Below the pieces are notes generated by a model. The model did not search any database. It worked only from the letters and a program-made list of their open reading frames with translations, and had not been told where the DNA came from. The translations under genes and the position numbers were made by a program. DNA of 53,875 nucleotides, counting the filler, from Sluysia triapertura (taxonomy: Eukaryota): the NCBI GenBank assembly GCA_046118255.1. It is 4 parts of 4 records of this genome, joined end to end, with 100 filler letters (N's around TTAATTAATTAA, not from the genome) between each part and the next. Parts side by side here need not be neighbours in the genome. Positions count along the whole stretch, not along the records: positions 27,118 to 42,208 come from JBJNIA010239772.1; 3 more parts are not named here. One strand, written 5' to 3'. How positions within the stretch are numbered: the stretch's first letter is position 1; every line of letters starts with the position of its first letter. Below are positions 1 to 47,265 of this stretch, one piece after another.

Positions 1-424
1 TGTTGAAATTATTAAGGCATAAAACGATCAAGATAACAATAGTGAGTCTTAATAATTCATAAGCTTCAAAGACGCAATAATAATAATAATAATAATAATA
101 ATATAAAATATATAGAAATATAAAATAAAAAGATTGTAATATATAGATAAAAAGGTATTGTATCATAATGATGACAAGGTGATAATGCGTTGTGTTTTAT
201 TTTGATGAAACGATGTTAGTAAAAAGTTTTTTATTAGGCTTGTGAGATTTTATAAGGATGAGTGTTGTAACGTTGAGATGAGACTTGTTATAATGTAATT
301 TTTGCCATGAGCTTTGTGTAGATGAATGTTATGATTGATGTGATATATAGGTAGGTGTAGGCTGGGCCACCACAACTTTACTGAAGAAATAGCGTTAGAC
401 GATATAGGAAAATATTATGCAAAA

Positions 425-660
425 ATGTTAAATTTGAGGAAACAAAAAGATGATGAAAGAGTTTATGAATTTGCTTGTGCACTTAAGAGTTTAGCATCAA
501 GAGTTAAAGTTCCGGAAGATAAAAAGGAAGCAACATTAATAGATAAGTTTAAAATGTGCTTCGTCCCGAATTAGGAATTTATATGGGTTTAATTGATAAT
601 TAACCATTTAGAGATATAATTAAGAAAGTAAGAGCTATTGAACGAACAGGAAAGAAACAA
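425..660 (+). pseudogene. LTR-retrotransposon gag (capsid-like) remnant, frameshifted
   Basis: Manual translation from 425 gives MLNLRKQKDDERVYEFACALKSLASRVKVPEDKKEATLIDKFK, then after a frameshift LRPELGIYMGLIDN*PFRDIIKKVRAIER. This resembles the Q..E.V..F...L..LA ... F..GL pattern of Ty3/Gypsy gag. Confidence 0.55.
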
Positions 661-2224: not shown

Positions 2225-2720
2225 TATTGTTTGGTGCATGAACTCGTGCAGTTTTTCAAAATTATGAAAAATGAATACTGATCAAGAATAAGAAACATGC
2301 AAAAAATTCTAGATAACAAAATGAATTTATTAAATCATTAGAAAGTTGGCCATTCAAGAGCTAGGTTGGGAAGTTCTTCCTCATTCCCCGTATTTGTCCG
2401 ACTTAGCCCCAATAGATCTTTTCCGTTCCATGTCGAACCATCTTTCTGGTCTCACATTTGAAAACGAAGAAGCAATAACAACATTAATTGAAGAATGTTT
2501 TGACCAAAAATCACCAAGCTTCTTCAAACGTGGGATTGACAAACTTCCAGAACGGTAGAAGAAAGTGATCGATTGTGGCGGAGAATATCTCACCGACTGA
2601 GACTGAGATATTTGTTCTTTCTAATGATTTAATAAATTCATTTTGTTATCTGGAATTTTTTGAATGGATTTTATTCATGATCAGTATGCATTTTTCACGA
2701 ACTTATGCACCAACCCAATT
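2225..2720 (+). mobile_element. Non-autonomous mariner derivative with ~100-120-bp inverted ends
   Basis: 2225-2345 is the imperfect reverse complement of 2617-2719. The termini resemble mariner TIRs (TTGGGTTGGTGCATAAGTTCGTG), and the interior encodes a mariner transposase C-terminus. Confidence 0.9.
2346..2590 (+). pseudogene. Mariner transposase C-terminal fragment
   Basis: LGWEVLPHSPYLSDLAPID-LFRSM...FFKRGIDKLPER*KKVIDCGGEY matches the mariner HPPYSPDLAPSD and GI..LPERW.KV motifs; the W codon is mutated to TAG. Confidence 0.93.
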
Positions 2721-9246: not shown

Positions 9247-10098
9247 TTAAACATTTTTTATATTGTTCTTGAAGGCGAAAAACCTAGTCCTGCATACGAT
9301 TCTTGGAAGGCCATGTTCTCTGCCTGAAAAATAAACAAAATTAATAAAGTCATAATGTTGAGTAAAATTATAGAATACCTCTCGCTCATTACTGTTCTTT
9401 TTATTTTTTGCGCTTATAGGATTCTGTACCATTAGGTCTTCTAAAAGTTCAGCTATTCTAAAAGTTTGCCATTCGTTCATTGATCTTGAGTCTTCCTGAG
9501 GTACCAGTTCATACGTCATATGTGCGTAGCGGAACAGGACTCCGTTTTTGATACATAGACCATATTCATCGGTGTAGTATGGGCAAATCGCGGTAAAATT
9601 TATATTTATATAGTCATAATATTTGTAGAATTTTTATTGATGTTGTCTTGAAAGGTTTAATATTTTTATGATTAAAATTCAAAAATGTTTTTGAAAAATT
9701 ACAAAATTTCTCGTTATCTTTAAAACTTTGGTTGTTTACACAATCCTTATTAATAATTTTGTGCTTAAGGCAATTAAAGACACTTAGTATTTGCGTTAGA
9801 GGTCGAACAAAATAAAAGTAACACGAATTATTTATATCATTAAAAGCGATGGTTACGGTTGATATACAATAGTTATCTAATACACTAAATAAAATTGTAA
9901 ATAAACCTAACAAACATTTCGTAGTCCAAAATTTAATGTGAGCTCGTATAACTTTACTTGAGTCTGATAATCTATCAAGATAAGTAGCAAGTGAATATAA
10001 ATAAACTTCTCCTGAAAGTTTATCAATCTAGGTTTTAGAATCTCGTACAACTTCTCGTTGTTGCCCATTAGTGAACGAACAATAATTGCTTTTATCAT
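9247..10098 (-). pseudogene. Frameshifted orphan coding region with a putative 55-nt intron (9324-9378)
   Basis: ORFs 9907-10098, 9614-9913 and 9247-9519 (frame open upstream to ~9615) tile the strand almost end to end. A GTATTC...TTTTTCAG intron-like segment lies at 9378-9324. No family recognised. Confidence 0.4.
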
Positions 10099-10780
10099 CC
10101 ATTTTTAAACTTTGTTGATTTCTAAAACGTTGTCTCCGTCTAATAGTATATTCATCTTTACGATTCTGGAACAATACATAAACTCGATGTTGAAACTCCA
10201 ATACCCTCGCCTGTAAATTTAAATTTAAATATTCGGTCAAGTACTCAACTGAGCACAATCTCCATACGCAACTTGAACAACAATTCTGATACTTCAAATC
10301 TTGTTTCGATCTACAACTTTTAATAATTGATTGCATCCCATCAACAACATGATAATGTAGACACTTCGTAGAAAATAACGGTTCGAATGTATTTACTATC
10401 TCCGGAACTATTTTAATTTGTGGAGATTGACTTTCATATAATTCTTTATTCAACTGACCCATAGTTATTTGAAATGAATGAGTTGCATTACAACATAATT
10501 CTTCAAAACTAGCACTGTTCATTCGTTGTGGTAACTCAAGGTTTAGATTTTTGAAATCTTTCGTACTGACTAATTGTTGCATGTAATCGTATCCTTCGCC
10601 GTAATAGATACCAAATTTACAATCTTCAGGTACTTTAAAATTGTTAAATTCACTTTCGATTTGATTTTCCATTGATCTCACAAACTGATCGATTATGTTA
10701 ATTTCACATTTTTGCTCACTCATGTCTTTAAAATATTTAAAGTAATAAGAAACAGGATTAATAATTTTTTTGTGTTTCAA
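10028..10780 (-). CDS. Orphan ORF, 250 aa (first ATG gives MSEQKCE...), Cys-rich central part
   Basis: Longest ORF in the window, with protein-like composition and a CCSSC..C cluster. No family recognised. Confidence 0.5.
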   Translation of the reverse strand: MKHKKIINPVSYYFKYFKDMSEQKCEINIIDQFVRSMENQIESEFNNFKVPEDCKFGIYYGEGYDYMQQLVSTKDFKNLNLELPQRMNSASFEELCCNATHSFQITMGQLNKELYESQSPQIKIVPEIVNTFEPLFSTKCLHYHVVDGMQSIIKSCRSKQDLKYQNCCSSCVWRLCSVEYLTEYLNLNLQARVLEFQHRVYVLFQNRKDEYTIRRRQRFRNQQSLKMDDKSNYCSFTNGQQREVVRDSKT

Positions 10781-11120
10781 TATTCAAACAAATTAGTATT
10801 CATATTAAAATGCAATTAAGTGATACCAAAAATATTTAAAGATATTTATAAACACAAACGAGAACATTTTAAATGATAATATTAGCAAAACTTATAATAT
10901 CATCAGAACCAAAACTTAATTTTAAATCTATAGACAATACATTGTTATGTTCAGAGGTGAAATAACTTTTCGAAAAAAATATGACAATGTTTGTTACTGG
11001 TTAATATACGACGATTATCATTGAAAATGGTTGTTGGACTACGAAACTGATATGGCGGTAGAGTATGTATAAAAAACCGATATAAGAATAAAATTGAGAA
11101 GACGTACTATTTGGTATTGT

Positions 11121-12458: not shown

Positions 12459-12558
12459 NNNNNNNNNNNNNNNNNNNNNNNNNNNNNNNNNNNNNNNNNN
12501 NNTTAATTAATTAANNNNNNNNNNNNNNNNNNNNNNNNNNNNNNNNNNNNNNNNNNNN
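12459..12558. other. Assembly gap spacer
   Basis: 44 N + TTAATTAATTAA + 44 N. Confidence 0.98.
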
Positions 12559-23479: not shown

Positions 23480-25252
23480 AAGTAGAACTGAAGATTAAAA
23501 ATTCTATCTGGTATAAAATGACTGAATACAGAAATGTGGTGGCTCATTATATTACAAAAATAATATTATAATATAATACGAAAACAATGAAAATACATTC
23601 AATGCTTTATTAAAAATCGGTAATTTTGGTTTGTTTAAGTGAATTTCTCAACGACTTTTTAATTTCATCTCGAATTTTTCTTAAAGATATAGTCGAAGCT
23701 CCATTGATCGACATATTCTAGTATCGATAGAAGTCAGTGCTGTGTCGTGACTAATACGATTGGTAATATATTCTACCTCGCTTTCATTTTCATTTGGATC
23801 AGATGAATCAAATTCCATCCATTTCTCAATATTTTGGTCATCAACATTTTCAAAGCCATTTAAATTCTTCATTAGTTCACATAATTCTGAAAAGTTTCAT
23901 ATTTCGAGTTCGGTAGAGTCCGAAACATTACTTCCTATATTTGACAAAATTTTCAACCACGATCGAACTAGTGTTATTGATTTAATTTTGTTCCAAGATT
24001 TAACAACTCCATATATTGCATCCAACATTGTCATTTTTTTCATAAATTCATTAAATTATCATTCTCGCTGCAAAAGCTTCTAAGGAGATCATTGCATTTC
24101 ATTAAAGAGATAACTCCTTGATCCACAAGTTGAATTAATTTTTACATTTTTGCGGCTATGAGATCGTCGTCTGTTTTCAGTATGCTTTCATTTGGATGAC
24201 AAGAAGCATTATCTAATAACAGTAATGCCTTATGTGGCAATCCTTTACTTTTTAAAAAAACTCAAATTTTTAAACTAATGTTCAAAGATTCTTCTGTCCA
24301 TCCATGCTTCTTTTTGATTGTATTAGTCAACAGGATGATTCTTTATTTCTGTTCCTTTAGATGATCTTGGCTTTTTTGCGTTTCCAATCACAAGAAGTTT
24401 CATTTTATGAGTTCTGGAAGCATTGCTACAGCAAATGATTTTGATACGTTCTTTAGATGATTTATGACCTCAAGTCGATCATTCATTAGACGAAGCAATT
24501 GTTTTTGTAGGCAAATACTTTCAGTATAAGCCTGTCTTATCGCATTATATATTTGGTCGGGTTTCAAATTATTTGCTTGAACATATTCCTCAAATTAAAT
24601 CCGGAATTTAGTAGCGGCGTTCTCCTTGGATTGAAAGCTCACGGATACCATGACGTTTCTTAAATATGGTTAGCCATCCATAAGATGCGTTAAAGTCGCT
24701 TTGTAATCCCAATAAATCATAAAAGAATTCGGCTTTATGTGCAATTACAGAGCATGTAATTGGCATTCCTGCCATTCGTTTTTAATCAAACTATTTAAGC
24801 ATAGCTGTATCAAAATGTCTTAATATGATGATATTTTCATACTTTTCCGAGTTGAAGGACCTGCATTACTATCACAGTCTCTTCTAAACTCCTTTTTTGC
24901 TTAATTATACCCAGAACTGTTTGAGAATCAACTCTGTATTCTTACGAAAGTTTCGATGTGGATTTACCATTTTCACTCATTTCAATTAACTGAAGTTTTT
25001 GTTTCACAGTCAGTACGACTCTTTTGCGATTTGATATTGAAATAGAATATTTTTCTAAAATAAAATTTACTTTTTATTAAAATTTTAAACCTAAAGAAAA
25101 ATAAAAATTCATACCGGTAAATCAATAGCAAATCAATAAGATTAAAATTTTCCTTCTTAAAATAAATAGATGCGTATTTATTTAAACAATCATGCATTTT
25201 CTAAATATTATCCACGGATAATCTGCGCAAAGATGATCGGGATTTTATTATA
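23480..25252 (-). mobile_element. Decayed Tigger/jerky-type pogo DNA transposon
   Basis: Minus-strand motifs: CENP-B HTH FNASYGWLTIFKKRHGIR (~24640-24695), frameshifted NAD.TGLY, SKERIKIICCSNASRTHKMKLLVIGNAKKPR (~24365-24455) and DDE_1 GLPHKALLLLDNASCHP (~24190-24243). Degenerate TIR-like ends lie near 23481 and 25250. Many stops and frameshifts; boundaries approximate. Confidence 0.9.
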
Positions 25253-27017: not shown

Positions 27018-27117
27018 NNNNNNNNNNNNNNNNNNNNNNNNNNNNNNNNNNNNNNNNNNNNTTAATTAATTAANNNNNNNNNNNNNNNNNNNNNNNNNNN
27101 NNNNNNNNNNNNNNNNN
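27018..27117. other. Assembly gap spacer
   Basis: 44 N + TTAATTAATTAA + 44 N. Confidence 0.98.
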
Positions 27118-28521: not shown

Positions 28522-28705
28522 TCACACTATCATTATGTTTTAGATGAATCTATAATAATAAAGAGTGGAAAGACATTTATTTGGAAAGTTCAAAACATTC
28601 GAGAACGTATTGAAGAATCGTTTGAAATTTATGATTATTCTATCCAAAGTCAACCATTCTATATTATCCAAGACTATGGTTCAAGATGTTAAAATTTAAA
28701 CATTA
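28522..28705 (+). pseudogene. TRAF-type MATH domain N-terminal fragment (putative)
   Basis: KSGKTFIWKVQNIRERIEESFEIYDYSIQSQPFYIIQDYG, then FKM after a frameshift, resembles the TRAF-C pattern G..IWKI....R..EA......L.SQPFYT...GYKM. Confidence 0.5.
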
Positions 28706-32151: not shown

Positions 32152-32529
32152 CTAACTGTCGTTAGAAACGCTGAGAAAAGCTTTAGCTAATATTTTTTGT
32201 TCTAATTCTTTAATTTTAGCTTCGTACTCTTGTACAGATTTAAAAGTTTTATCTCGATCTTCCTTTGTTGACCATGGAAACAATGTTGGTACATAATCAA
32301 CATGATTTGAATCCAGATTTGGCTTGCCAGTAGCAAAATGTGCATTACATATTCTCGAATTACTTGAAATTGTTCCATATTTTATTCGATTTTCACCACC
32401 AATTTGTGCTAACCACATTTGTTTTCGATCAAAGTTTTGTGGAAACCGATAAAAAATTTTTTTTCGCTTTGTATTTACAGTGGTTGATTCAGTATCACAA
32501 TTCAAAATACAACAAAACAATGTAGGCAT
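32152..32529 (-). CDS. THAP-domain (C2CH zinc finger) protein with a short coiled-coil-like tail
   Basis: MP...CCILNC, FYRFP, R..W, RICNAHF and VPTLF give the complete THAP signature. Confidence 0.88.
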   Translation of the reverse strand: MPTLFCCILNCDTESTTVNTKRKKIFYRFPQNFDRKQMWLAQIGGENRIKYGTISSNSRICNAHFATGKPNLDSNHVDYVPTLFPWSTKEDRDKTFKSVQEYEAKIKELEQKILAKAFLSVSNDS

Positions 32530-35043
32530 TATATTACGACTTTGTTATAGTGCAGAAATCGACTGATTCAATATACAAAATAATAATAAAAATTACAAAT
32601 ATTCCAATTAGAATTTGAATTTTCATTTATATTACAATTGGACATCGTTGCATTAAAAAACTATTTTGATGAGTAATAAGGATACGCGATGTATATAATG
32701 ATAAATACGGACGAATTTGAGTGGTTGATTTAAAAGTACAACGCAGTGTTTTGTTTTCTGGTTGTAAATACTGTTCCTTTCCTTTCACACAAATTAAATA
32801 ATGTAGATACGCTATATAGATTTGTAAAATGACAAATTATTGAGAAAGTAATTTTTCAAAATGAAATACACACTGGACAAGTAGCACACAAAATAGCTTG
32901 ACACACAAGGCTGACAATAGACAGAGAATCAATATTATTAATAAATTGAATTAACCAGTATGAAACGAGATAGATAATGAATTGATATATCTATATCGAT
33001 CGATTTTTAAACATATTTAATAACATTTATATAATAAATTTTATAATTTTTAAAATTTGATATTTAAATTATAAAATATTATAAGTGATAAAATTTCATT
33101 AGTAAGTAGTATAGAAAATCTATAATTTAATCGATTATTTGGAAAGTTGAATTTCCTTACATATAAACGTAAAATTTAAATGATTGTGTTAATATTAATT
33201 TAAATAAAATTTCAGTGCACTCTACTGTATACAGTGTGTAAATATTCGAAATGCACACTAAACTGCCTATCAAACAATTATTGATTTGTTATGAGGTAGA
33301 GAATCAATATTGTAGTATACTGTATATATCATTTTTAAATGAATCAGTTTTTCCATACCAAACTGTAGTGTACATAAATGTGAATATATTGATGTGTTGG
33401 ACAAAAATCAATTTAAGTATTTTTCTGTATATTATGCAAATATATGATTTAATAAAATAACGACATTGATGATACTAATACAACATACTTTACTTTTGTT
33501 TAAATTTTAAATTTCCTCACATGATAAAGTCTCACCACTCTTACTGTTTAAATAAAAATACGTCAACAGCATATAGAGACCGTCATTTGCACACTGACGT
33601 GTTGTATTCATTATAAAATTTGTTAATACACACATTTATATGTTATCAAGAAAAAAGCTACTTTTTAAATTTAGATGATCATGAATTTTAATTGGGCCAA
33701 AACTTTTTATTACTAATATTGATTTTTATGCCTTTTTGACAAAATCTATATGCACAACCTATATAACTATTAAATGCATACATTACAATTTTTTGTTAGT
33801 TTTAAAATTGTTGTTTTTCTTTTCCGTATTTTGGAAATGATTTTGCCTTTTCTTTTACTTTCCCCCTTCAATTTTAAAAAATCAATATTTACATCTATAA
33901 ATTCCCACAGTTCGATTTATCGATTTTCCCCTTAAAGTTTTTTTTATAAAAAAACCAAATAAATTCACTGATATTGTAGACGAAAAATTGATCATTTTTG
34001 TTATTAAAATTTAAACTCAGTGCCAATTTATATTTTAAATCTTTTTTAATTTGATTTTTATTTTGGTAAAAATAAAAAATATTAATGTAATAATTAATTT
34101 TCTATTTTATAATAATTATCGACAATTGCAAAGAAATTCAAAATAAATTTTGTTAATTTTATATTTCTTCATTTTGTACATACTACTTACATACATACAT
34201 CTGATACAGAGTAAGTAAGCATACTACTTCATTCTGTTATGCAGTATAATACTGTACCTCATCGATTGAAACTGCTTTCACATACACTTCGATACTATAA
34301 AAAATTAATAATTATTGGTATTTTTCATATAAAAATATAAAAGAATATAAAGTATATTTTTCAACAGGAATATTTACATATATTGGTTTGGGTTTATAAA
34401 ATATCGATTGTTTTTTGGGTTTAAATGAAGAGATATTGATTTATTGCATTTCTTTTAATTCTGTATTTTTGAAATAGTTTTTGGCTCTATATTAATTTTT
34501 TAAAAAAATATTAATTAAAGTCAATACGAATAATTTTTTTAGAATTTTTTAATAATTGTTTCAATTGTTATTAAATTAATATTGGCTAATATATGATTAT
34601 TTTGCAAAATATTTATGTATCCAAGTTTTAATTATATAAATCAGTTATTAAATCAATTTATAAAATGGAATAAAACTATTAAATGTGTGTTCTAACCATG
34701 CAACGTTTTAAACTGATTCCGGATTATGCATTGCAATTTTAGCAAAGTTGTTAAATTTCTGAAAAATAACATCCGGCATAATTCCAAACATTGATGTGTT
34801 GTAAAAAGTAAAATTATTTTAAAACATTAAAATAGCGGCGCATTTAAAACCTAATTTTAAAATAAATTACAAGTTAAATAAGATCTAATTCGACATATAG
34901 ATCTAGTATTAGTCTGGTGCTAATTATTAATGAAATTAATGAAATTACGTCAATATATCATTGTCACCATAAAGTAATAGTAAATAATATATTGTGAGGA
35001 TTTAATGTAGTTAAATTAAATTAAACTAAATGTGGTTTTAGAT

Positions 35044-35128: not shown

Positions 35129-36069
35129 TTCTTTGTTTCTAACTTTTATTAACGTTGTCAGTTAACTGAATCTTCCTTAGCACGTGGCTTATTATAATTT
35201 AGTGAATAACTATTACAAAATATTAATTTGACTATTTTTGTAAAAATGAAAGGTACGTTTAAGCTCACCTTGAATTACGAATTATATTTAAAAATTATAT
35301 TTAAAATTATCAGCTAATGATACAAAGGCGAGTTAACTAAATTAATAAATGTCAAAATATGATATCGAACAAAACTATAAAACGAATAACACAAAGTATA
35401 AACTAATTCAGTGAATAAAAAGAAATATATTAAACGCTATATATAAAAGGAAAATTATTTATTTAACTCTACTTTAATTTATATATGAATTATAGGACAC
35501 AATGTTAGTTATAATACGTCAGATATCCAATTTATACATGTATTTATAAATATTAATTTTATTAATTAATATTTGTTTGATATATTTTTAAAACTGATTT
35601 TATTTAGTAATAGAAGTTACGAAATAATTTGAGTTTAATATTACCTGTATTTTGTAAATTTTAAAAAAATCTAAAAATAATTTAAACTACGATTTAGCGT
35701 AATATAGTCACTCCAAATCAATAACTATTTTTTAAATCAAACTAATTCGATTTAACTTTCAATGTAATCTATTCTAAATCTTAAATTATAATCTTCTTTT
35801 TCCGATGTAATTTGTTTTTTCAATTCTCAAGGTATAGTCTTCTGAAAATTTGTTTTCTAAAAAATTCTTAATTGTTTAATGAATGAAATTTATAACTTAC
35901 TTACTATTTATATATTTATATTTGTTATGGTAACATATTGATAAACTTTATTTGTTTTAAATTTTTATAATTTTAAAATAAAAATTTTTTAAATATAAAA
36001 GTATTTTATTTTTTAATATTTATAATAATAAATTTAAATATTTAATATATAAAATTTTCTACATCATAA

Positions 36070-36200
36070 TTTTATAATAATTTAATTATATTACTTTTAC
36101 AAATAATAATTTAATAATAATTTAATCTTAACAATAATTTAATTATATTAATAATTTAATTGTATTACTTTATAATCATTTAATTATATTACTTTTACAT
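36070..36200. repeat. AT-rich minisatellite (ATAATTTAATTATATTACTTTT-like units)
   Basis: Four to five imperfect tandem units. Confidence 0.65.
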
Positions 36201-36232
36201 ATACATATATATAAATTCAGCAAATAATTAGG

Positions 36233-36310
36233 CCTCCATAAATTATATCTTACTGTTAAAAATCCAAGTCTACCCCTAACTGGTAAGACTAGATACCTTG
36301 GTGAACTCAC
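36233..36310 (+). repeat. Dispersed structured motif, copy 9
   Basis: CCTCCA at 36233; core AAAATCCAAGTCTACCCCTAACTGGTAAGACTAGATACCTTGGTGAACTCAC. Confidence 0.9.
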
Positions 36311-38295
36311 CTAATCAATTGACATTTATTCTTGTTTAAGAAAATGTTTTAACATTTTCTAACAGTATAAATAATTATGCACCAATATTACGTTGTTTCA
36401 AATTTTACTTAATTCGAAATATTTATCTTTAATGTCGTCATCTTATACTCGTCTTAATTGACAATGTGTCGTTTAGTATTAAAAAATTTCACTTCGTTTA
36501 CTCTTAATATTATATCATGTCTTGCAAAGAAGTTATCTAATTTCACAAAAACTTTTATTCTATCGCTCAATAAATTTTATCTTAAAAGCTTTATTCTATT
36601 TCACAATGATCTTACTCATATTTCGTGATAAACTTATAATATTTTATTTTGTGGCGACTTTATTTTATTTTATAAAAACTATATTTCACTTTCTAAAAAC
36701 TTTAATTTCCTTTATAAATGTTAATTTTTATTTCTTAGTACCTCTATTTCCAACCTTTTTAAGTTATAGATGATTATGCAAAATTTATTTATATAAAATA
36801 GCCAATAAATTTAAAATTTATTAATTCGTTAGGTTAAATTAATATAAAATAGTCAATATTTATTCAGTTAGATTAAGTGAATTCAGTGTTATTACAATAA
36901 AACGAATTTGAAAATATTAACTTATTTTAAATCAAACGAAAGATTAAAAAATCTTACTTTGTTTGGAATCAAATACAGATATTTTGTTGAGTCTTTTCGA
37001 TTAGTCTTTACGTGGCTGAATTCACGAGATTTCTTGAAATTATCTCTGGTTTATATGCAGCCAAAATGAATACTTTAACGTGATTTTATTTCATTTACAA
37101 AATATCTTGCTTTTAAATGATTTTGATCGAAGCTTAAATTTTCATTTCACGTTGTTTATATTCAATTTCAATCTTAATTTAAAATGATTTTATTTATTTA
37201 ATCAGCTATGATATCAGAGTTTAATGTTTATAAATTTGAATTTCGCATTGTTTCTATACGATCTCAATTTAAAATTACCACTATAAGATTTCGATTTAAA
37301 ATGATACAAAAATATTACGATCTCAATAGTTAAACATTATAGAATATCGGACATTAAAGTAATTATTATTATTGAGCATTATGTCAACATTATTATTCTT
37401 CTTTACTTTTATTATTGCATTATTGTATTACTAATTATTAACATTGTTACGATTATGATTGTATTATTTTGATATTATATGTTGATAAGAATTGTGATTA
37501 CAACTTAATAATGATAATAATTTAATAACAATAAAAATTATAATACACTAATTTAAATAACCCTAATAACCACTTTGAAATAAGTACTCAAAAGTGCTTA
37601 TTAATTATAATATTTCTTAAGTAGAAAGAATGCTTTCTTTTAATTCACTATCTTGTAGTAATAGTTTGTTGTAAATGTTTAAAAGTTAAAAGACATATAA
37701 CTTATCACTCATTTTATTATCACTGTGTATTTTATATAAATTGTTTTAAGTTATGATATATTCATTTTGATATATTTTGATTTTTTCCGAGTGGTATTAC
37801 TAATACACAAAATCAATAAAAATAAAATAATAATTCGCACATTTTTATAAAACATTTAATTTATCTGAAACACATAATTAATACTATATATTTTAAAATA
37901 ACCAATTTTGTTATTTTCTAATAAGATTGTTACATAATACTTACATATCAGCAATTGAATGTCGATGAAACTATTTTCAATTAATTGTTTTTTATATTTC
38001 GCTCAAGTATTTTTGGATTTTTATATCATCAAAAAATTAATAAAAATCATAGACTAAATCAATATGCCATTTGTTTAAAAATAAATAAAGTAGATCCTTT
38101 GTTAAATAATCTCAGGGTTTAGTACTAATATTTTGTGGTTCTACTATTTTTTTAATTTATTCCTTAATATTTAAAAATAAAATGTTTTAATAACTGATTG
38201 TGTATATTTCTATTGAAACAATTTCTTTTTCTTATATTTGTCATTATCATTACTGTATCTTGAACATCTGTGCCAATTCCTGATGAATCAGAATT

Positions 38296-38682
38296 TCATT
38301 CTAATGTAACTGTGATGGAGATTCCACGATATATCTGATAAGTGAAGTGTAGATGCAATGATATCAGGTAATGGTAAGTCGAAATTGGCATTTGATACAA
38401 GGTTAATTCATCACCGATTTGTGGAACTATTAGTTGTGTCATAATCATATTTGAGCCTGGTGGTACTTTTATACAGCTATATTTACTGTGAATGACCATA
38501 TATTCTAATTTATTGATAACATCCATAACTAATATTAATTCGTATGGGCTACTTTCCCAAACATTTACTAAAACTTGTACATATTGCCTTAATACTTCTA
38601 TATAGCATAATAGAGTTCCGTTGATGTTTATGGGTGTTTGGTTAACATTATGCGTGACCAATCTTGGTCTATTTAAGAACAC
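38296..38682 (-). CDS. Orphan ORF immediately 3' of the truncated integrase
   Basis: 128 codons open and co-oriented with pol. No family recognised. Confidence 0.25.
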   Translation of the reverse strand: MFLNRPRLVTHNVNQTPININGTLLCYIEVLRQYVQVLVNVWESSPYELILVMDVINKLEYMVIHSKYSCIKVPPGSNMIMTQLIVPQIGDELTLYQMPISTYHYLISLHLHFTYQIYRGISITVTLE

Positions 38683-38698
38683 TGATCCCCAAGTAGTT

Positions 38699-39330
38699 TT
38701 ATAAATCCCAATCAGTTTGTCTGTCGTTCACATAAGATTGAATCATATTAATAAGAGTTTTGTTAAAGCGTTCCACTAGTCCGTCTGTTTGTGGTTGGTA
38801 AGGTGATGTATAAATTCGAAGTTTATTAAAGATTTTAGCTACTGACTTGATTACATCACTGGTAAAATTAGTTCCTTGATCTGTTAGTAATTTACGAGGC
38901 GTACCATATCTGTAAATGATCTTTCTACTAATATTTGTGCCACTGTTTCGGCTTTTTGATTCGGCATGGGGTAAACCTCTGGCCATTTAGTTAAATAGTC
39001 CACAAATACAATAATATACTTATTACTATTGATAGTCTCTGGGAGATGACCCATAATATCCATAGGGGTAAATTCCATTGGTGATAATGGTACTGGCATA
39101 GGTTTCAATGGTACCTTTGTCTTTTGTCCTGTATTTTTACGTCGACTACATATTGAACAATCTTTACATCATTTTCTGATATCTGATTCCATGTTTTCCC
39201 AGTAGTATTTACTTTTAATTCTTGATAACGTCTTTCTTGTTGATAGATGACCTCCCAACTGTCCATCATGAATTTGTATTAAAAGAAAGTACGAAAGATT
39301 CTGAGATGATAGTTTTCCACTCATCTTTAT
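38699..39330 (-). pseudogene. Ty3/Gypsy integrase (HHCC zinc finger + rve core), frameshifted
   Basis: HD...GGH...YYWENM...C..C zinc finger; MDIMGHLP, IIVFVDYLTKW, LLTDQGTNF and TSPYQPQTDGLVERFNKTL core motifs. Confidence 0.95.
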
Positions 39331-39435
39331 TATTTTTAAATCCCATCCTGTCCATAATAGCTAATCTCTTTGCTTGTAATTCATTTAAGGTTCCCTTGGC
39401 TAATACATCTAAAATAGCCGAAATCTCCTTTAGTC

Positions 39436-40145
39436 CATTTAAGTTTTACATTTTTCTTTGTTAATTTCCTGAGAGGATGTGCGATTTTTGCGAAATTTTT
39501 TTACAAACCTTCTATAGTAGTTGGCTAATCCCAAAAAGCTCTGAACCTTTTTAACATTATCTGGTTGAGGAAATTTAATTACCTTTTCAATATTCCTTGG
39601 ATTTGGTTTAATACCCACCTTTATATACTATATGTCCTAAGAATTCAACCTTTTCTTCCGCCCATACACATTTCGTAGGTTTTATTTTAAGTCTTGCGAC
39701 TTCTAATCTTTTTAAGATATTGTCGAAGTCTTCTAGATGAGTCTTAAAATCTTTTGAAAATATTATGATGTCATCTATGCATACCATGACATTTTTACAT
39801 CCTGATAATACAAAATTCATACAACGCTGGAAAGTCGCTGGTGCGCCGGTATAATTCGTATAATTCGTTTCCACACATGAAAGTTGTTTTGTGTTTATCT
39901 TTTTCTGCTATTTCAATCTGCCAGTATCCACTTTGTAAGTCTAAAGTTGTAAAATACGCAGCATTACATAGTTTATCCAACATCATAGTCTGTTGGATAA
40001 AGTGGGAATGTATCTTTTCGTGTTATCTTATTCAATTCTCTGAAATCTATACAAAATCGCATTGTGCCGTCCTTCTTTTTAACTAGTAATACTGGTGATG
40101 AAAATGAAAAGAAGCTTGGTTGTATTATTCCAGCTTTTTCATAGT
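39436..40145 (-). pseudogene. Ty3/Gypsy reverse transcriptase, frameshifted and internally deleted
   Basis: [60 protein letters not shown] (YxDD mutated), FLGHIV and VQSFLGLANYYRRFV. The MPFGL motif is deleted. Confidence 0.96.
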
Positions 40146-40709
40146 CAATCTTGTAGTTGATTTTGTTAATGTTGTTTGTAAAATAATACGATTAAGTGTT
40201 ATGTTAGAATTAGGCGTTATCAAAGTCTTTGAGGGTTTAACTTTAAGGAAAAAATAAATATATCGACAAAATTTAGACTTACTAATATTATAAACAAAAT
40301 TCAATAGTTTGAAAACCTTAATATTAAACTGTAAGAGAATATACGTCTTTAAAAACCTATAGAATGTTAATTCATCTTGACTATTTATGTCATCGTTATG
40401 AAAAGATATTTCATATTGTGAAAATTTGACCACGACTTTGTAATTGTCATCTTTAGGTTTTATTTTATCAACGTCGCGTTCAATTTCTTTAGATACCTTA
40501 TTGAAGTTTTGTCTGTTGTGCAACTTAACATCTTTATTAGTCCTTATGTTATTAGTTTTAAAATCCTTTTGTATTATTCTAATATTTAAATTAATATCTT
40601 TACATATATGGAATAAAGAACGAAGCCTAAAACATTTGACAAAATGATTTATTAAAATTTCTAGTTTACGTAAAATTATATACATTGACTGCTGTACACA
40701 GAATGCCAC
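40125..40709 (-). CDS. Orphan 194-codon frame between the BCH fragment and RT
   Basis: Long open frame in AT-rich DNA; no gag zinc knuckle or D(T/S)G protease motif is visible. Confidence 0.3.
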
Positions 40710-41362
40710 ATCTCACCATCCCAAGATCTAGTTTCGTTACTAAAAGTCCTACAATAAATAAAATACAAATATTTACAATATACAAGGATATAATTAAAAT
40801 TCAATGTTAATTTATTACTTGTAAAACCTCCGTAGTTTCCATCACCTTCTTCCAATTTGTCATCAAATGGTTCATATTTTTCTTCCACGTCGGCTTCACA
40901 AGTGAGCATTTGATCTAAACAAAATTCAGTTTCTGAATCCTTCAACCTTTCCACCTTTACAATCTTTCTTCTTACTTTTATACTGAACAACGGCGGTAAT
41001 GTATTGATAATAACTTTCAGTAAATTTGTTGGATGAACAATGAATACACTTTTCAAATTTTTCTTGAGATCTCTATCAATTTCTCTAAATGCATTTATCG
41101 AAAATCGTATATCAGGATTATATTTACTGTTTAAAGCATAATGAAAATATACAAGAGGATAATCATTAGATACAGATTGTTGCAAAGTTTTAGCAATATG
41201 TTTATATAAGCGAATGAGATTAATTTCATTTGTTGGTGGTACACGACACGCATAAAATACTATTACCTTCTCTTCTGATTCATCATCTCCAACTACTTGA
41301 GCAACATTTAACTTAACAATTTCCTGAAATTCTTCATTAATCATATCTAGTGTCGTGATCAT
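40676..41362 (-). pseudogene. Intronless BCH/CRAL-TRIO_2 domain copy of an ARHGAP1 (p50RhoGAP)/RhoGAP68F-type gene, without the GAP domain
   Basis: QVVGDD..EKVIVFYACRVPP, DYPLVYFHYALNSKYNP and AFREIDRDLKKNLKSVFIVHPTNLLK align with ARHGAP1 EVAGDD..RKIIVFSACRMPP, DYTLLYLHHGL and AYREFDRKYKKNIKALYIVHPT. Confidence 0.9.
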
Positions 41363-41766
41363 CGATATACCAAATTCTTTGTCAAAATGAGCTTTAAAAG
41401 GTTAGTTTCGGAAATTATTTCAACCGGACTTTCTAACTGACAACATGAAACTAATTTATCTGGCAATGATTGCAAATTATTTTTACTAACATGTAATACC
41501 ATCAAATTAATTAAAAACTCGATTGCATTCGGGATGTTACACAGTTCGTTATCACTTAATATCAGTTCATGCGATGAAACACAACAAAATAATTCTTTCG
41601 ATAATTCTGAAATGTTGTTATTGTCAAGATTAAGTACTTCTAATGAACGTTCGTGATTAAATATATCTGTAGGAACTTGACGAAAATATCTGCTGGAGTA
41701 ATCTAACACTTTGACTTGAGGTGTCTTATGAATACAGATACGTTTGAGAAAACTTTTCTTTATCAT
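41359..41766 (-). pseudogene. Intronless N-terminal LRR fragment of a LAP-family (Erbin/Densin/Lap1-type) gene
   Basis: LDYSSRYFRQVPTDIFNHERSLEVLNLDNNNISELSKELFCC...LSDNEL..IP.AI..LINL..L.VSKN aligns with Erbin [42 protein letters not shown]...LINLRELDVSKN. Only about four LRRs are present. Confidence 0.88.
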
Positions 41767-42208
41767 TAAGTTTTATCGACTGATCAAACCCAGAAAATAT
41801 GATTTCTTTATTTACTATCAACAAATTCTGATTTCATAATATTATTAATAAATGATTGTAAACTAATTTTAGTTATGTTTTGTTCACCCAATCAGAGTGT
41901 TGATATTGGTATATTTTCTGATTAGTTTTATTATTCTCTGATTGGGTGATATCTACTATCACTGTAACGAACGAAGAAAAAGACTGATGGCTAACCGCCA
42001 TCAATACTGACAGGTCAATATTAACATGAAATTGGCTGTCAGCATTGGTGGTGGTAGCAACCAGTGCTATCGTCAAATTTTTAGTTTAATTGAATTTATT
42101 ATTATTTAGAAAACAAAATGGCGAATAATGAACGATATTAATGATTAAAAATAATAATAATAACAATAACGAAATAGTGAAATCATTGTTATTATTATTA
42201 TAAGATGA

Positions 42209-42308
42209 NNNNNNNNNNNNNNNNNNNNNNNNNNNNNNNNNNNNNNNNNNNNTTAATTAATTAANNNNNNNNNNNNNNNNNNNNNNNNNNNNNNNNNNNN
42301 NNNNNNNN
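42209..42308. other. Assembly gap spacer
   Basis: 44 N + TTAATTAATTAA + 44 N. Confidence 0.98.
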
Positions 42309-43284
42309 ATTTTCCAAAAAATAAAGTTTTTAATAATAAATCGTAAAGACTTAAAACGATGACCAAAAAATTCGAATTTGGAAATTCTAAAATCTTTTCT
42401 CGATTCGAAACTTTTAAAATTAAAGATTTAAAAAATATCAGCAATTCAATTTCAGGCTTTGTAGCATCCTCTCATATTAATTTTGATATAATTCTAATGA
42501 TTAGATGATTACTGTTAAATTGTCACCGGCAACACTTTAATACTGCAAAATCAACTTTGATTTAAGCTTATTTTCTAAAAAAGAAAATTCCTTACTAAAA
42601 ATAGAAAAGAAGTTTCTAAAATATTCCAGTACATTCTAGAATTATACTTGTTTATGAGTGACTATTGGTTAATCATAAAGCTCAATTAGTTGTTAAGTCT
42701 CCGTATTGGTTAATCAGATTCTCCATCTTGCTTTTGGAGAGGTTCTTGAGCTGGTTCATTAGTGCAAATAATATTGTTGGCTGTACAATTCTACAATTTT
42801 ACAAATTCGCAACTTGGATCGCTGACAGTGAGCTAATTGATCAATTTTTGTCCAAATTTCTATATCAAGTTTAAGTTGCTTTATTTTCCTCGAGGACATA
42901 AAAATATAAAAATCAACTTAAAATTTCTGTAAAAGATATTTTTTACCCGATGTAATGAGGATAATAATTTATAATTAAACTTATTTATATATTGAAAAAA
43001 ATTAAATATCCAACTTGATTTTAATTTTAAAATATTAATTATTTTTCTTTGTTCTGACTATCGTATTTAGTATCGTATTTAGTTATTTCATTATTATGTT
43101 TTTATAAGTTAGGGGTTTTTCGATTATTATTATTATAAGTGAGAACAATAACGAAAGTGTAATTCATAGACTAAACGTAAAGTGCAGTTTTAATAATTTT
43201 TAAGATGGATCATTGATTTGGTTGATTGAGATCATCAAATTGTTAAGACTCTTTTAATAGACGCTAAGATTTCCTTAGTTTTAG

Positions 43285-43380
43285 TTATAGGAACGTCCTT
43301 TTTACGACATATGACGTTTTCTGTAACCGGACCCGGTTCAGTTTTATTTTACCACAGTTTAGGAATTAAGAAAACAAAAA
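43285..43380 (+). repeat. Repeat family C, copy 2
   Basis: Aligns with the reverse complement of 26430-26525. Confidence 0.8.
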
Positions 43381-44130
43381 TTTTTTGACCTCAAAAGGTC
43401 TATTTTATTATTATGTTTATTATTATTTAGTTATGATTATGATGATTATTATTATTATTATATATCAGCATTAGTTTATTTCTTTTCTCTAATATTTCTG
43501 ACCTGACAGATCATAAAAATGCTTCAAAACAATTATTAAATTATCCAACCTTAAAAAACTATTTTAATGTTTAAATATAATTATTTGTTGATTAAATATT
43601 AAAAAGTTATGATTATAGAAAACATTCAATATTTTATTTCAGTAGGCATTTTAAATGTTTCTGCAGTATGTGGTTTATATTTAAAATCTTTAGTGTGATC
43701 GTTGGTGTTGAAATTTAGGTTGTTATAGATATGTAAAAAAATGGAACTCATATGATTACATGAAAAAATATTGGTGTTAAAATATGTTGTTATGGTGTTA
43801 TGAATGTTGTGTTTAATTGTGAACTGAGCTCACCACATAAACTCCCCCCTATCAAAGGAGAAGCGTAATGAATATTTTTCTGATCTTTAATTACAAAGGA
43901 AACACATTTTCGATTATCAAACAATTTTATATTGTCTAACAATATCGACATTTTGCATTGTTAAAATTATTTTAAAATTATTATTTTCCATAACGAATAA
44001 AATATTTTATTATTTAACGATTTTTAAAATAAATTATTTCTACAAAAATTGTCAGTAATAAATTCAATCGAAACATATATTGTTTTAATTATGATTTCTT
44101 GAAATGACTTAGAAAATAAAAAATATTCAG

Positions 44131-44360
44131 ATGTTGGACCAGCTAAAATAACAACGTCTGCAAAAGCATTTAATAGATATTTAGACATGGTATATACTCA
44201 GGGTGGTGGTGATTGCCCGGAAATGACTGTCAGTGGTATAGAGATGGCTTTAGAGGCTGCAAGACCAAATTCATTAATATACGTTTTCACAGATAGTAGT
44301 GCCAAAGATTATGAGAAGGCGAAGCGTGTTATGAATTTAATTCAAAAGAAGCAAAGTCAG
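44131..44360 (+). CDS. HMCN1: Internal coding exon of a hemicentin (HMCN1/him-4-like) gene, N-terminal VWA domain
   Basis: Acceptor ttcag|AT at 44130/44131 and donor CAG|gtctgt at 44360/44361. Translation (D)VGPAKITTSAKAFNRYLDMVYTQGGGDCPEMTVSGIEMALEAARPNSLIYVFTDSSAKDYEKAKRVMNLIQKKQSQ matches hemicentin QGGGDCPEM...IYVFTDA..KDY...LIQQKQSQ. The symbol indicates family, not tested orthology. Confidence 0.93.
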
Positions 44361-47265
44361 GTCTGTGTTTAATAATATAATTAAAAATGCTTTTTTTAAA
44401 CGTATTAAGTTTAATTAATTGTTAAAACATTTATTTAAAATATTCTTTCATGTGTTATTGAAGCACGAAAATTAAAAATAAATAAAATTATATTACAACT
44501 CAGGATAATATTTATTAAATCTTCCATTTTGAATTAATAAAGTTATTGACTGATATGGAAGACTAAGATTTCATATTTAAGGTTTAATATAGAAAAATGA
44601 AGATTTTTCTTTTATTCATTTTTGAAACTACTTATTTTAGTGACGCATAATTTTTTATTAAGTTTTTTTATTAATTTGTAGTAAAATTAAAAATAATTAA
44701 AATAATATTTTTACTGTCATCGCGATAAATCATAACTATTTTTATTTCTATTTTTATAAGCTTGTATAAATTACTTTTTATTAGTGTTCCGATTGTTTTT
44801 GGAAATATTTCTTGATAATTTTTTAAATTTCTGTGCTTTCAAACATTTCTGTAAGTGTTTGAACAACCTCAAAAAAGTCAAGAATAAGTTCTGGGCTATT
44901 TCTGCAGGTAATATACAAAGTTTAAATATGAAACATAGTTACACAAAAGACACACTCATTAAATTTCTTATTGATAAATTCGTATACTTTTTTTATTTGT
45001 ACTAATCCACTACTTTGTTTACATTAAAAATCATACTTAATAATTGCATGCAATAGGAATTCATTTTTTCTACAATTTTTGGTCTCTATTCACATAATGG
45101 TTTATCTAATAATTCAAATTTTAATATTATCAAAGTTATCTATCTATATAAAACAGAAATTAATGTTTAAACAATTGTTACACATTGAGTAAACAATTAA
45201 CTAAATACATTAAATGCATTAAGCCCAATACATTGAAAAATTCAAGCTCAAACTTAGTAAATTCAATACTTATATTTCTTCTTCAAACAATTCTGAATAC
45301 TTTCTTATGTCAATATATTAATAACTGCTCACGAAAAATATACTTATAATAAATATAAATAATTATACTTTCAAAAAAATTCTGTAAAACGTTACTATTT
45401 CTCCATATCTTTAAGTTACTTTATAATCGATTCTCAACTTTAGTCAATACGTACTTTATTCCTCAATAATACTTTAAATATTTTCACTTATATAAATTAT
45501 TGTTAGTCATCAACAACCTAAACTCTTTATTGTTTTACTATTTTATTAATGTTTATTTATTCTATCTAGAAGTATGAGTTCGGATACTCGTTCCGATGAC
45601 TTGGAATGGAAACTCAAAAAATATGTCGTAAGTTTATTTTAAGATGAAGTTCAATTTACTATACAAAGATTAATAATTTTAATCTTTGTCACAACTGTTG
45701 TTCTTTGATTATGATTTTATGTTAATTTCTTTTTTTGAGAAACTACTCTCAGAACACAAAAAATTCAAATACGAAAATTTATTAATTAAATACTTTATAC
45801 AAAAAACAGTAACACTAAAACTCATAATAATGAATATAAATATATACTGAAATGTATGTTTATAACAATTTTAAACTGGAAGTACAATAAATATCATTTA
45901 CTTAATCGACAATAACTATAATTAATTTTGATTTGTATCTTTGATTTCGAAATGTTAACAGTTGATCCTACACATTATTTTCAGATTTCTTTTTCAATTT
46001 TTCAATACCAAGAATGAATTTTAAGTGATCTTCTCAAGTCTTCTTTAATTTAGTAATATTAATGATTAATCTTCCATGGAATATGCAGCAATATTTTCCC
46101 TATACTACTCCTCGTAATACTGTTTGCAATAACTAATAATCAATCGTCGAATGAGTTGTCAAATATTTATTCGTGCTATTTATAATAGTTTTATTATAGT
46201 TTAAATTATTTAATTTTCTAATTCATTTAATTATTTATTTAATTATTTAATTCATTAGTTATGTTACTATAATAATTTCATAATAATCATAGTAAGTGAT
46301 GGTTATAATAATTCGATTTGTATGTTGTTATCATTTCATTTGTTAATACATAATGTTAACGTGTAAATAACAATACATTTATAAATGTGTATCTATTATA
46401 TGATTAATTTGCTAACTTTAATATTGGTTTTTGAAATGCGTCTACTAAACAACCATAATTGTGTAATTTTATTGTATATGTTAATGTGTCTTAATTAACT
46501 TTATTATTGATTTTGAATAATTATTAATTTACTTTATTTTAATCAATTTACATTTTGAATTTTATTTGGAAATTTATTTATAATTTTATTAATTATTTTG
46601 GAAATTTATTAGCTCAATGGTGAGTCTTATTTTAATTAAACTTTTATTAAACTTTTAATTAAACTTTATAAATAATTTTGTTTAAATAATTAATGTAAAG
46701 TAACATCTAAGGTTAATAGGCAAAAGAATATAAATAGCACTATAGTTAACATAATTTTCACAATTTTTTTAAACACAAATTTGGTCAACTTATTTGTTAC
46801 ACCATTAAATCTTTGGAACAAACAATTCTTTCGCCTATTAGCTCAAATAATTGTATACGTTAGTTTGTTTTCTTTAAGGCAGGATATTTTTTAAAAATAT
46901 CGTTGTAAAATTCACTCAAAATCTTTTATCCATTTAATTTTTTTTGTGATCTTGAATATATCATTGTAAAATCATCTTTAAAATTTTAGTAAAGTTCGAA
47001 TTACAATTTGTAAAACATATTATTATTATTATTATTTTATTGTTTTATTTCATAATTTTTTTGTATATAATAAATATTCGTAGAAGAGAAAGCATTGACT
47101 TTTATATAATTATAAGGAAGAAAATCATCGATTTAAACATAAAATAGTATTGAGTTTTTTGATTAAAAAGAATAAAATCGCTAATTGAAAAAATCCTCAT
47201 TACAGGATTGTGTAAAATACTTCTTAAGTAAATAAGACAAGCTATAGTAACAATAACTGTAATAG

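Follow-up and report, generated by a model that had tools for sequence, protein, structure and literature searches.

Pieces of an ARHGAP1-Type BCH Gene and an LRR Gene Upstream of a Decayed Ty3/Gypsy pol in Sluysia triapertura

Introduction

How do pieces of host signalling genes come to lie where gag and protease are expected in a Gypsy element? The question is raised by a locus within 53,875 nt of Sluysia triapertura DNA (the window), for which an initial annotation had described an LRR frame and an ARHGAP1-type BCH frame in tandem ahead of a Gypsy pol, and had interpreted the pair as a chimeric, retro-transduced cassette. Given that the three best matches of the BCH peptide are flatworm proteins, the source genome is very likely that of a flatworm, and its composition and repeat load suggest that it is probably of the free-living, planarian type. 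Three N gaps (12459-12558, 27018-27117 and 42209-42308), each made up of 44 N, TTAATTAATTAA and another 44 N, are artificial linkers, and contiguity across them is not assured.

Results

Sequence Context

The window is AT-rich and eukaryotic, with 16-33% GC per kb, and transposon debris is plentiful. A THAP domain frame and Tc5/DDE_1 transposase debris occupy 32152-32544 (minus strand), 23684-24781 (minus), 2334-2555 (plus) and 344-571 (plus), and mariner-like and gag-like remnants were recognised among these intervals by eye only. A dispersed repeat of ~53 nt, present in both orientations at 1451, 14153, 21469 and 47328, probably marks one end of a small non-autonomous element. Adjacent long frames of 251, 137 and 128 codons at 9247-10783 (minus), of which the third shows weak similarity to a UNK-like CCCH zinc finger (E=1.6e-5), probably belong to a real gene with short introns. 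ARAGORN returned 0 matches, as did Rfam for positions 36000-46000.

The pol Remnant and Its 3' End

On the minus strand, the locus reads LRR frame, BCH frame, orphan frame, RT, integrase and polypurine tract; stop-to-stop frames and Pfam bear out the coordinates and order originally assigned from the LRR frame to the integrase. That the pol is of Gypsy type is likewise confirmed: RT is followed on the same strand by H2C2 and rve (Pfam), and the RT is nearest to Ty3, its two PDB matches being 4ol8 (RT/RNase H) and the Ty3 Gag-Pol polyprotein. RT and connection (~40190-39442, minus) are broken over four successive frames (RVT_1), the broken integrase (38702-39360, minus; H2C2 zinc finger and rve core, Pfam) ends after the core, and, as counted by eye, pol changes frame seven times within ~1.5 kb and has one in-frame stop. 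RNase H gave no Pfam match in three frames of 39621-39200, and gag and protease are missing as had been claimed, no such Pfam family appearing at E<=1 in three frames of 40930-40179. Judged from its sequence, the element classes as a deletion derivative of Ty3/Gypsy and not as an autonomous member, with none of gag, protease and RNase H found.

The integrase is followed by a 143-codon frame (38296-38727, minus) that is repeated in the genome and matches nothing in Pfam, PDB or PHROGs; it might be an accessory or env-position remnant. Further downstream lie a polypurine tract (38233-38222, minus) and a TG at 38220, and the repeat ends ~15 nt after the tract (feature 38205-38233), where the unique contig 37185-38235 starts. 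Tract and TG are likely the stub of a cut 3' LTR; as a motif alone such a tract is weak, there being 3 on the minus strand of 36000-44200 and 7 in the window. A second copy of the stub was not found in the window. Neither a 5' LTR, nor a PBS, nor a target-site duplication was seen, and the 5' end of the element runs into the N gap.

Truncated Host-like Frames Upstream of pol

The BCH frame comprises 228 codons (40676-41362, minus; M41362 to stop 40676) and matches CRAL_TRIO_2 at E=1.5e-18. An ARHGAP1/8 BCH (Sec14-like) domain extends from ~41395 to 40900 and gives way, in the BCH frame, to an unrelated tail. The ARHGAP1-type assignment made at the outset is sound, because the best matches are BCH-RhoGAP proteins: the peptide matches human ARHGAP1 (PDB 6r3v, E=2e-28), and the best three of its 673 matches (150 listed) belong to the RhoGAP family and come from Macrostomum lignano (48%), Anoplocephala and Schistocephalus. 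Such flatworm best matches fit the expectation for a host-derived piece. Word-index protein searches at near and longer lengths returned no BCH protein among 23 and 349 candidates, and no BCH relatives were found in metagenome contigs.

Has the domain evolved like a working protein? In a tree of 33 rows, built from the full-domain matches among P0001-P0045 only, the copy groups with cestode ARHGAP1s (support 96/93) on a branch of 1.21, which is long beside the median of 0.2. We defined conserved columns as those kept in at least 80% of 77 full-domain relatives, 73 of the 150 matches being left out as partial; the peptide keeps 25 of 34 such columns and loses 9, where the median is 32, which makes it the second lowest of 78.

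Both host-like parts are truncated, in agreement with the initial annotation. When 156 BCH-family proteins were aligned to the window, they gave 0 alignments outside the BCH block, and the only outside alignment from the protein set came from an LRR protein (P0157). Since no BCH-family relative aligns outside the block, the window holds no RhoGAP exon. All 156 also leave the LRR part unmatched, so that the claimed lack of a native LRR-BCH protein is true within that set.

The LRR frame counts 135 codons from its ATG (41359-41766, minus; M41766 to stop 41359), matches Pfam LRR_8 at E=2e-9 and holds about four repeats, reaching ~41430. LAP-family proteins combine a long LRR array with LAP-specific domains and a PDZ domain. 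Of these hallmarks the frame offers only about four repeats and no PDZ, and Pfam finds LRR families alone. We take the motifs LDYS, QVP..IF and LINL..L.VSKN to be of Erbin/Densin type. In the ESM Atlas, LRRC1-like and LRRC7 clusters score 0.97-0.98 and the top match is a generic LRR cluster; no LAP protein appears among the best 60 of 213 or the best 60 of 190 PDB matches, and the word-index search at longer lengths yielded one unnamed LRR protein among 117 candidates. The frame is probably the N-terminus of a LAP-family (Erbin/Densin/Lano) gene, and the more specific label of Erbin/Lap1 serves as a lead.

A Diverged, Amplified Family with and without an Intron

Is the cargo part of an ordinary gene, or is it a repeat? 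Contigs of two public runs, X1 and X2, were aligned to 35500-42208 with a likeness threshold of 80%. What kind of run X1 is has not been recorded; that it covers the unique flanks evenly suggests DNA, and the assembly may have been built from it. Over the unique flank at 36281-38235, three X1 contigs show 0-1 differences at a depth of 12.3-14.7. Single X1 contigs over the cargo reach depths of 887 (~40240-40283, in the 3' part of the orphan frame), 165 (the one LRR sibling contig, spanning ~41608-41815) and 103 (BCH start), that is, about 65, 13 and 8 times the flank. It is these single-contig depths that carry the repeat claim, because summed depth (2290-3635 in the BCH bins, 230 over 41548-41771 and ~45,000-158,000 over pol) gives no copy number. 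X2, at ~1/150 of the X1 depth, contains mainly repeat parts; its BCH pieces are 83-95% alike, and it leaves 41548-41771 uncovered. Over the cargo, sibling contigs are 81-95% alike. High single-contig depth and diverged siblings thus identify an amplified, diverged family.

These findings bear directly on whether the segments are ordinary host exons, or an assembly mis-join, beside Gypsy debris. The draft assembly has gaps, and a vWA exon, presumably of hemicentin type, lies across the linker gap, both of which would suit such an explanation. It is nevertheless largely refuted by the many diverged, high-depth sibling contigs in two runs, which point to captured and amplified cargo as the initial annotation had proposed; moreover, the window has no RhoGAP exon, the domains are cut and conserved residues have been lost. 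We consider this explanation extremely improbable. The vWA exon itself (44103-44361, plus; Pfam VWA_4, E=1e-26) is on the other side of the gap from the element, a motif scan found no neighbouring exons, and it may belong to a gene with long introns or be another captured piece.

A sign of an RNA step is a 42-nt intron at 40241-40282 (minus), which begins GTAAGT and ends in a pyrimidine tract and AG. It is kept in the studied copy and absent from sibling contigs, in which the joint 40240/40283 (ends CT..AC on the plus strand; letters between not known) has a depth of 887 in X1 and 5.8 in X2. If X1 is DNA, the missing intron implies that siblings were copied via spliced RNA in the sense of pol. 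A second candidate intron at 40669-40627 was rejected, most siblings differing at its first base (depth 1623/1913).

The claim that introns are absent holds for the LRR and BCH homologous blocks, to which it referred, but intron-like pieces occur downstream of the BCH domain. Besides the 42-nt intron, there is a 70-nt GT-AG piece at 40749-40818 (minus), with 16% GC between flanks of 38-40% GC, through which the BCH frame reads; it is one of three such pieces in the whole window by the filter used, and it is absent among the 15 of 125 joints shown. Within the domain, the alignment runs unbroken through query positions 124-125 and 97, where 14/150 and 3/150 relatives, respectively, end. These positions may be conserved exon edges, which would be an indirect sign of intron loss in the BCH domain.

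Upstream of the LRR frame, a high-copy repeat (41780-42208, minus) ends in a (TAA)n run at the N gap. Its summed X1 depth is 5158 and 26833 in two bins, the second inflated by the simple repeat, and it could be further cargo or 5' sequence of the element. By eye, a cadherin-repeat-like remnant is visible at ~41930-42075 (minus), broken over three frames; neither Pfam nor PDB gave a cadherin match there, and it could be a third recognisable cargo gene.

Boundaries between the Modules

The stop codon of the LRR frame overlaps the start codon of the BCH frame in an ATGA; being out of phase with each other, the two frames do not encode a fusion protein. The junction zone lies at 41386-41436 (minus), with ARHGAP1 similarity reaching ~41386-41398. 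Some siblings skip an 86-nt piece (41310-41395) that carries a 5-nt TTAAA repeat at both ends; the joint 41309/41396, the letters between its ends not being known, has a depth of 103 in X1 and 9 in X2. An in-frame LRR-BCH fusion in sibling copies was considered and rejected, since the LRR-side match of the skip variant is limited to 34 letters in X1 and 41 in X2. The skip-variant contig of X2 has 210 letters on that side, with the letters between the joint ends again not known, and X2 record 16 ceases to match at 41399 with 24 letters remaining.

The two host-like modules are not equally abundant. Sibling contigs over the LRR part are much scarcer than those over the BCH part, and X2 has none of them, so that capture of both in a single event is unsupported; the simplest reading is that the LRR piece was a later, lower-copy addition, in one lineage, to an older BCH-bearing repeat.

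Further downstream, an X2 contig (40791-40955) bridges the boundary between BCH domain and tail at ~40900, and two X1 contigs with a total depth of 40 cross the cargo/RT boundary, placed by eye at ~40170. Both differ from the studied copy at 40158 and extend at least 43 letters to either side. A mis-join, allowed for initially, is made unlikely at the first boundary and, more narrowly, at the second. The boundary-crossing X1 contigs argue against it, yet they link pol to only a few cargo copies: it is on these two contigs, with their difference at 40158, that continuation of the cargo siblings into pol rests.

Might the cargo then be a separate non-autonomous element (a derivative of another LTR family, a Helitron or a Pack-TIR) that inserted into a Gypsy pol remnant or recombined with one, so that few copies carry pol? 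The mosaic depth, which is only 40 at the cargo/RT boundary and 887 just upstream, would be accommodated by such an origin, as would the retained intron-like pieces and the failure to find an LTR pair. However, an RNA step is required to account for siblings that lack the intron, no interruption is seen in the LRR and BCH blocks, every part runs in the orientation of pol, the boundary is common to two other copies, and Pfam found no Helitron or transposase family adjoining the cargo. On balance, we regard a separate element as unlikely, though worth serious consideration.

Open Frames without a Sign of Selection

Between the BCH frame and RT lies an orphan frame of 195 codons with 25% GC (40125-40712, minus), the third-longest of 8116 stop-free runs in the window. 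It stays open in 0/20000 shuffles under each of two models, and the 74-codon tail of the BCH frame in 42-59/20000. No homologue of the orphan frame was found in Pfam, PHROGs (best E 0.06), PDB, the Atlas (best 0.81) or metagenome contigs, and a single-sequence structure model has a pLDDT of 45. The frame is most likely a third captured coding piece; that it is a maintained accessory ORF is a minority reading.

This minority reading deserves a fuller statement: the source element could keep a functional accessory ORF, made of the BCH domain and the orphan region in the manner of planarian Burro elements, and the locus would be one decayed daughter of that source element. Beyond the shuffle results, 820 nt of cargo are unbroken, for which P is about 0.007-0.02 at the lesion density of pol, although the block edges were chosen where homology ends and this inflates the test. 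The break between the BCH and orphan frames sits where most siblings differ in length from the studied copy (depth 1080/1116), so that it may be private to that copy and the coding layout of the family may differ from the one seen here. Host-like domains are, furthermore, carried by Burro elements, to judge from the part of that report available (PMC6431247). Against these points stand the lost conserved columns and the long branch of the BCH domain, the skip by which siblings differ inside the BCH start, and the pattern of substitution. In the LRR and BCH frames, 9 of 11 listed sibling differences change the amino acid, where ~74% would be expected without selection, and in the orphan frame 3 of 6 are silent; over the three cargo frames 5 of 17 are silent, near the neutral share of ~26% computed for the LRR and BCH frames. 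These counts draw on the 40 differences shown of 910, most of which look private to the studied copy and so say little on the source element. We hold an accessory ORF of this kind to be improbable.

A bolder variant proposes a stepwise-built accessory region (BCH and orphan, with the LAP LRR cistron coupled via ATGA in one sub-lineage) that would be under selection and express a GAP-less BCH decoy acting on host Rho/polarity signalling; this seems to us quite improbable. The initial annotation was right that the cargo is open beside a broken pol, but selection on the cargo frames of the studied copy, one of the two causes it had suggested, is unsupported, and the copy looks unconstrained. The frames are probably open since capture was younger than pol decay and not through protein maintenance. 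Neutral decay leaves the orphan frame unexplained unless it is young coding sequence.

Discussion

How might this arrangement have come about? We favour, as a probable though far from certain account, a dead non-autonomous Ty3/Gypsy derivative in which pieces of host transcripts replaced the gag-protease half through repeated template switching while the element RNA was being reverse-transcribed. We envision a scenario whereby a piece of ARHGAP1/8 mRNA, comprising the BCH exons, and a further intron-bearing piece were initially taken into the element RNA. The chimera would then have been copied in trans many times, and in some lineages the 42-nt intron would have been spliced out of the RNA intermediate. 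Later, in a sub-lineage, the 5' end of an LRR mRNA from a LAP-family gene would have been placed ahead of BCH, in a different phase. Finally, as the element no longer depended on pol in cis, pol might have decayed, and the studied copy would have been left with little of its 3' LTR. Template switching, the order of capture and mobilisation by this Gypsy family are what we infer from the arrangement; the retained 42-nt and 70-nt intron-like pieces fit capture at the DNA level or from pre-mRNA equally. The chimeric cassette initially proposed is thus retained as captured, amplified host cargo with an RNA step, but not as an LRR-BCH protein, the frames being out of phase.

Why does this matter? 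The locus would provide a flatworm example of at least tens of copies, built in steps, in which spliced and unspliced forms occur together, and both the order of capture and any selection should be readable from a tree of the siblings, given a long-read assembly. Many near-copies of ARHGAP1 and LAP pieces might, in addition, mislead gene annotation as well as RNAi design and small-RNA targeting directed at the real genes. If a cargo frame were under selection, it would represent the second flatworm case, after Burro, of a retroelement with a host signalling module.

The process of capture is already known; BCH/LRR cargo was not found in print. Our literature search found no retroelement cargo with BCH and LRR or RhoGAP, and the supplements of the Burro paper or repeat libraries may list such a family. 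Among known systems, planarian Burro/GYPSM1 is described, in the portion of the report available, as a set of giant Gypsy elements with host-like domains upstream of RT and one gag-pol polyprotein of ~4900 aa (PMC6431247). The domains named there are AIR1, Smc, MATH, BIR, ankyrin, BCL2, SUMO-like, dUTPase and env, LRR and BCH not being listed in that portion, and decayed Burro fragments are reported in one planarian species (PMC6431247). The locus shares with these elements a flatworm Gypsy background and host-like signalling domains upstream of RT; unlike them, as far as they are described there, it is a 4-kb remnant without gag, protease and dUTPase. The frames scanned between 44021 and 38199 contained none of the Burro features (gag, MATH/BIR/BCL2/ankyrin, env, dUTPase or kb-long LTRs). 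Elsewhere in the window, a short TRAF/MATH-like piece (28522-28689, plus; TRAF5, E=0.07) may be a Burro remnant, MATH_TRAF_C being a Burro domain, or a piece of a TRAF pseudogene.

LTR elements of bdelloid rotifers have, according to the accessible text, whole enzyme or env ORFs (ORF3) added to gag and pol (PMC5408684). They resemble the locus in being invertebrate LTR elements with added ORFs, but at the locus cut host pieces stand in for gag and protease.

Closer counterparts are the chimeric retrocopies of LTR elements. In the sections available, partial and sometimes two-gene retrocopies are described that replace internal ORFs of LTR elements and then spread non-autonomously (Tan 2016, PMC5131818); template switches depend on microsimilarity, and the cases in Drosophila are young, occupy few insertion sites and in several instances show both LTRs (PMC5131818). 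Likewise, the locus has partial host pieces in place of internal ORFs, and its cargo family has spread as a non-autonomous unit, as indicated by many diverged, high-depth sibling contigs, pol linkage being seen in few copies. The joints described there have short shared sequence; at the locus there is the 5-nt TTAAA repeat at the internal skip, the parents not being seen. In contrast to the cases covered in those sections, the flatworm family is diverged by 5-19%, is much more amplified and has modules of unequal copy number; it includes forms with and without an intron, and neither LTRs nor parents are seen at the locus. Maize Bs1, in the accessible parts of two reports, is an LTR element with three host gene pieces, acquired by separate uptakes and not all in frame, and reportedly gave rise to a new chimeric gene (PMC13317346, PMC5131818). 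The locus also combines pieces of several unrelated host genes that are not all in frame; Bs1, as described, is a plant case with a new chimeric gene, whereas the studied animal copy shows no selection and has its LRR and BCH frames in different phases. By analogy, the best reading is that the locus works like the LTR chimeric retrocopies and Bs1, as a member of a putative non-autonomous, multi-gene LTR retrocopy family.
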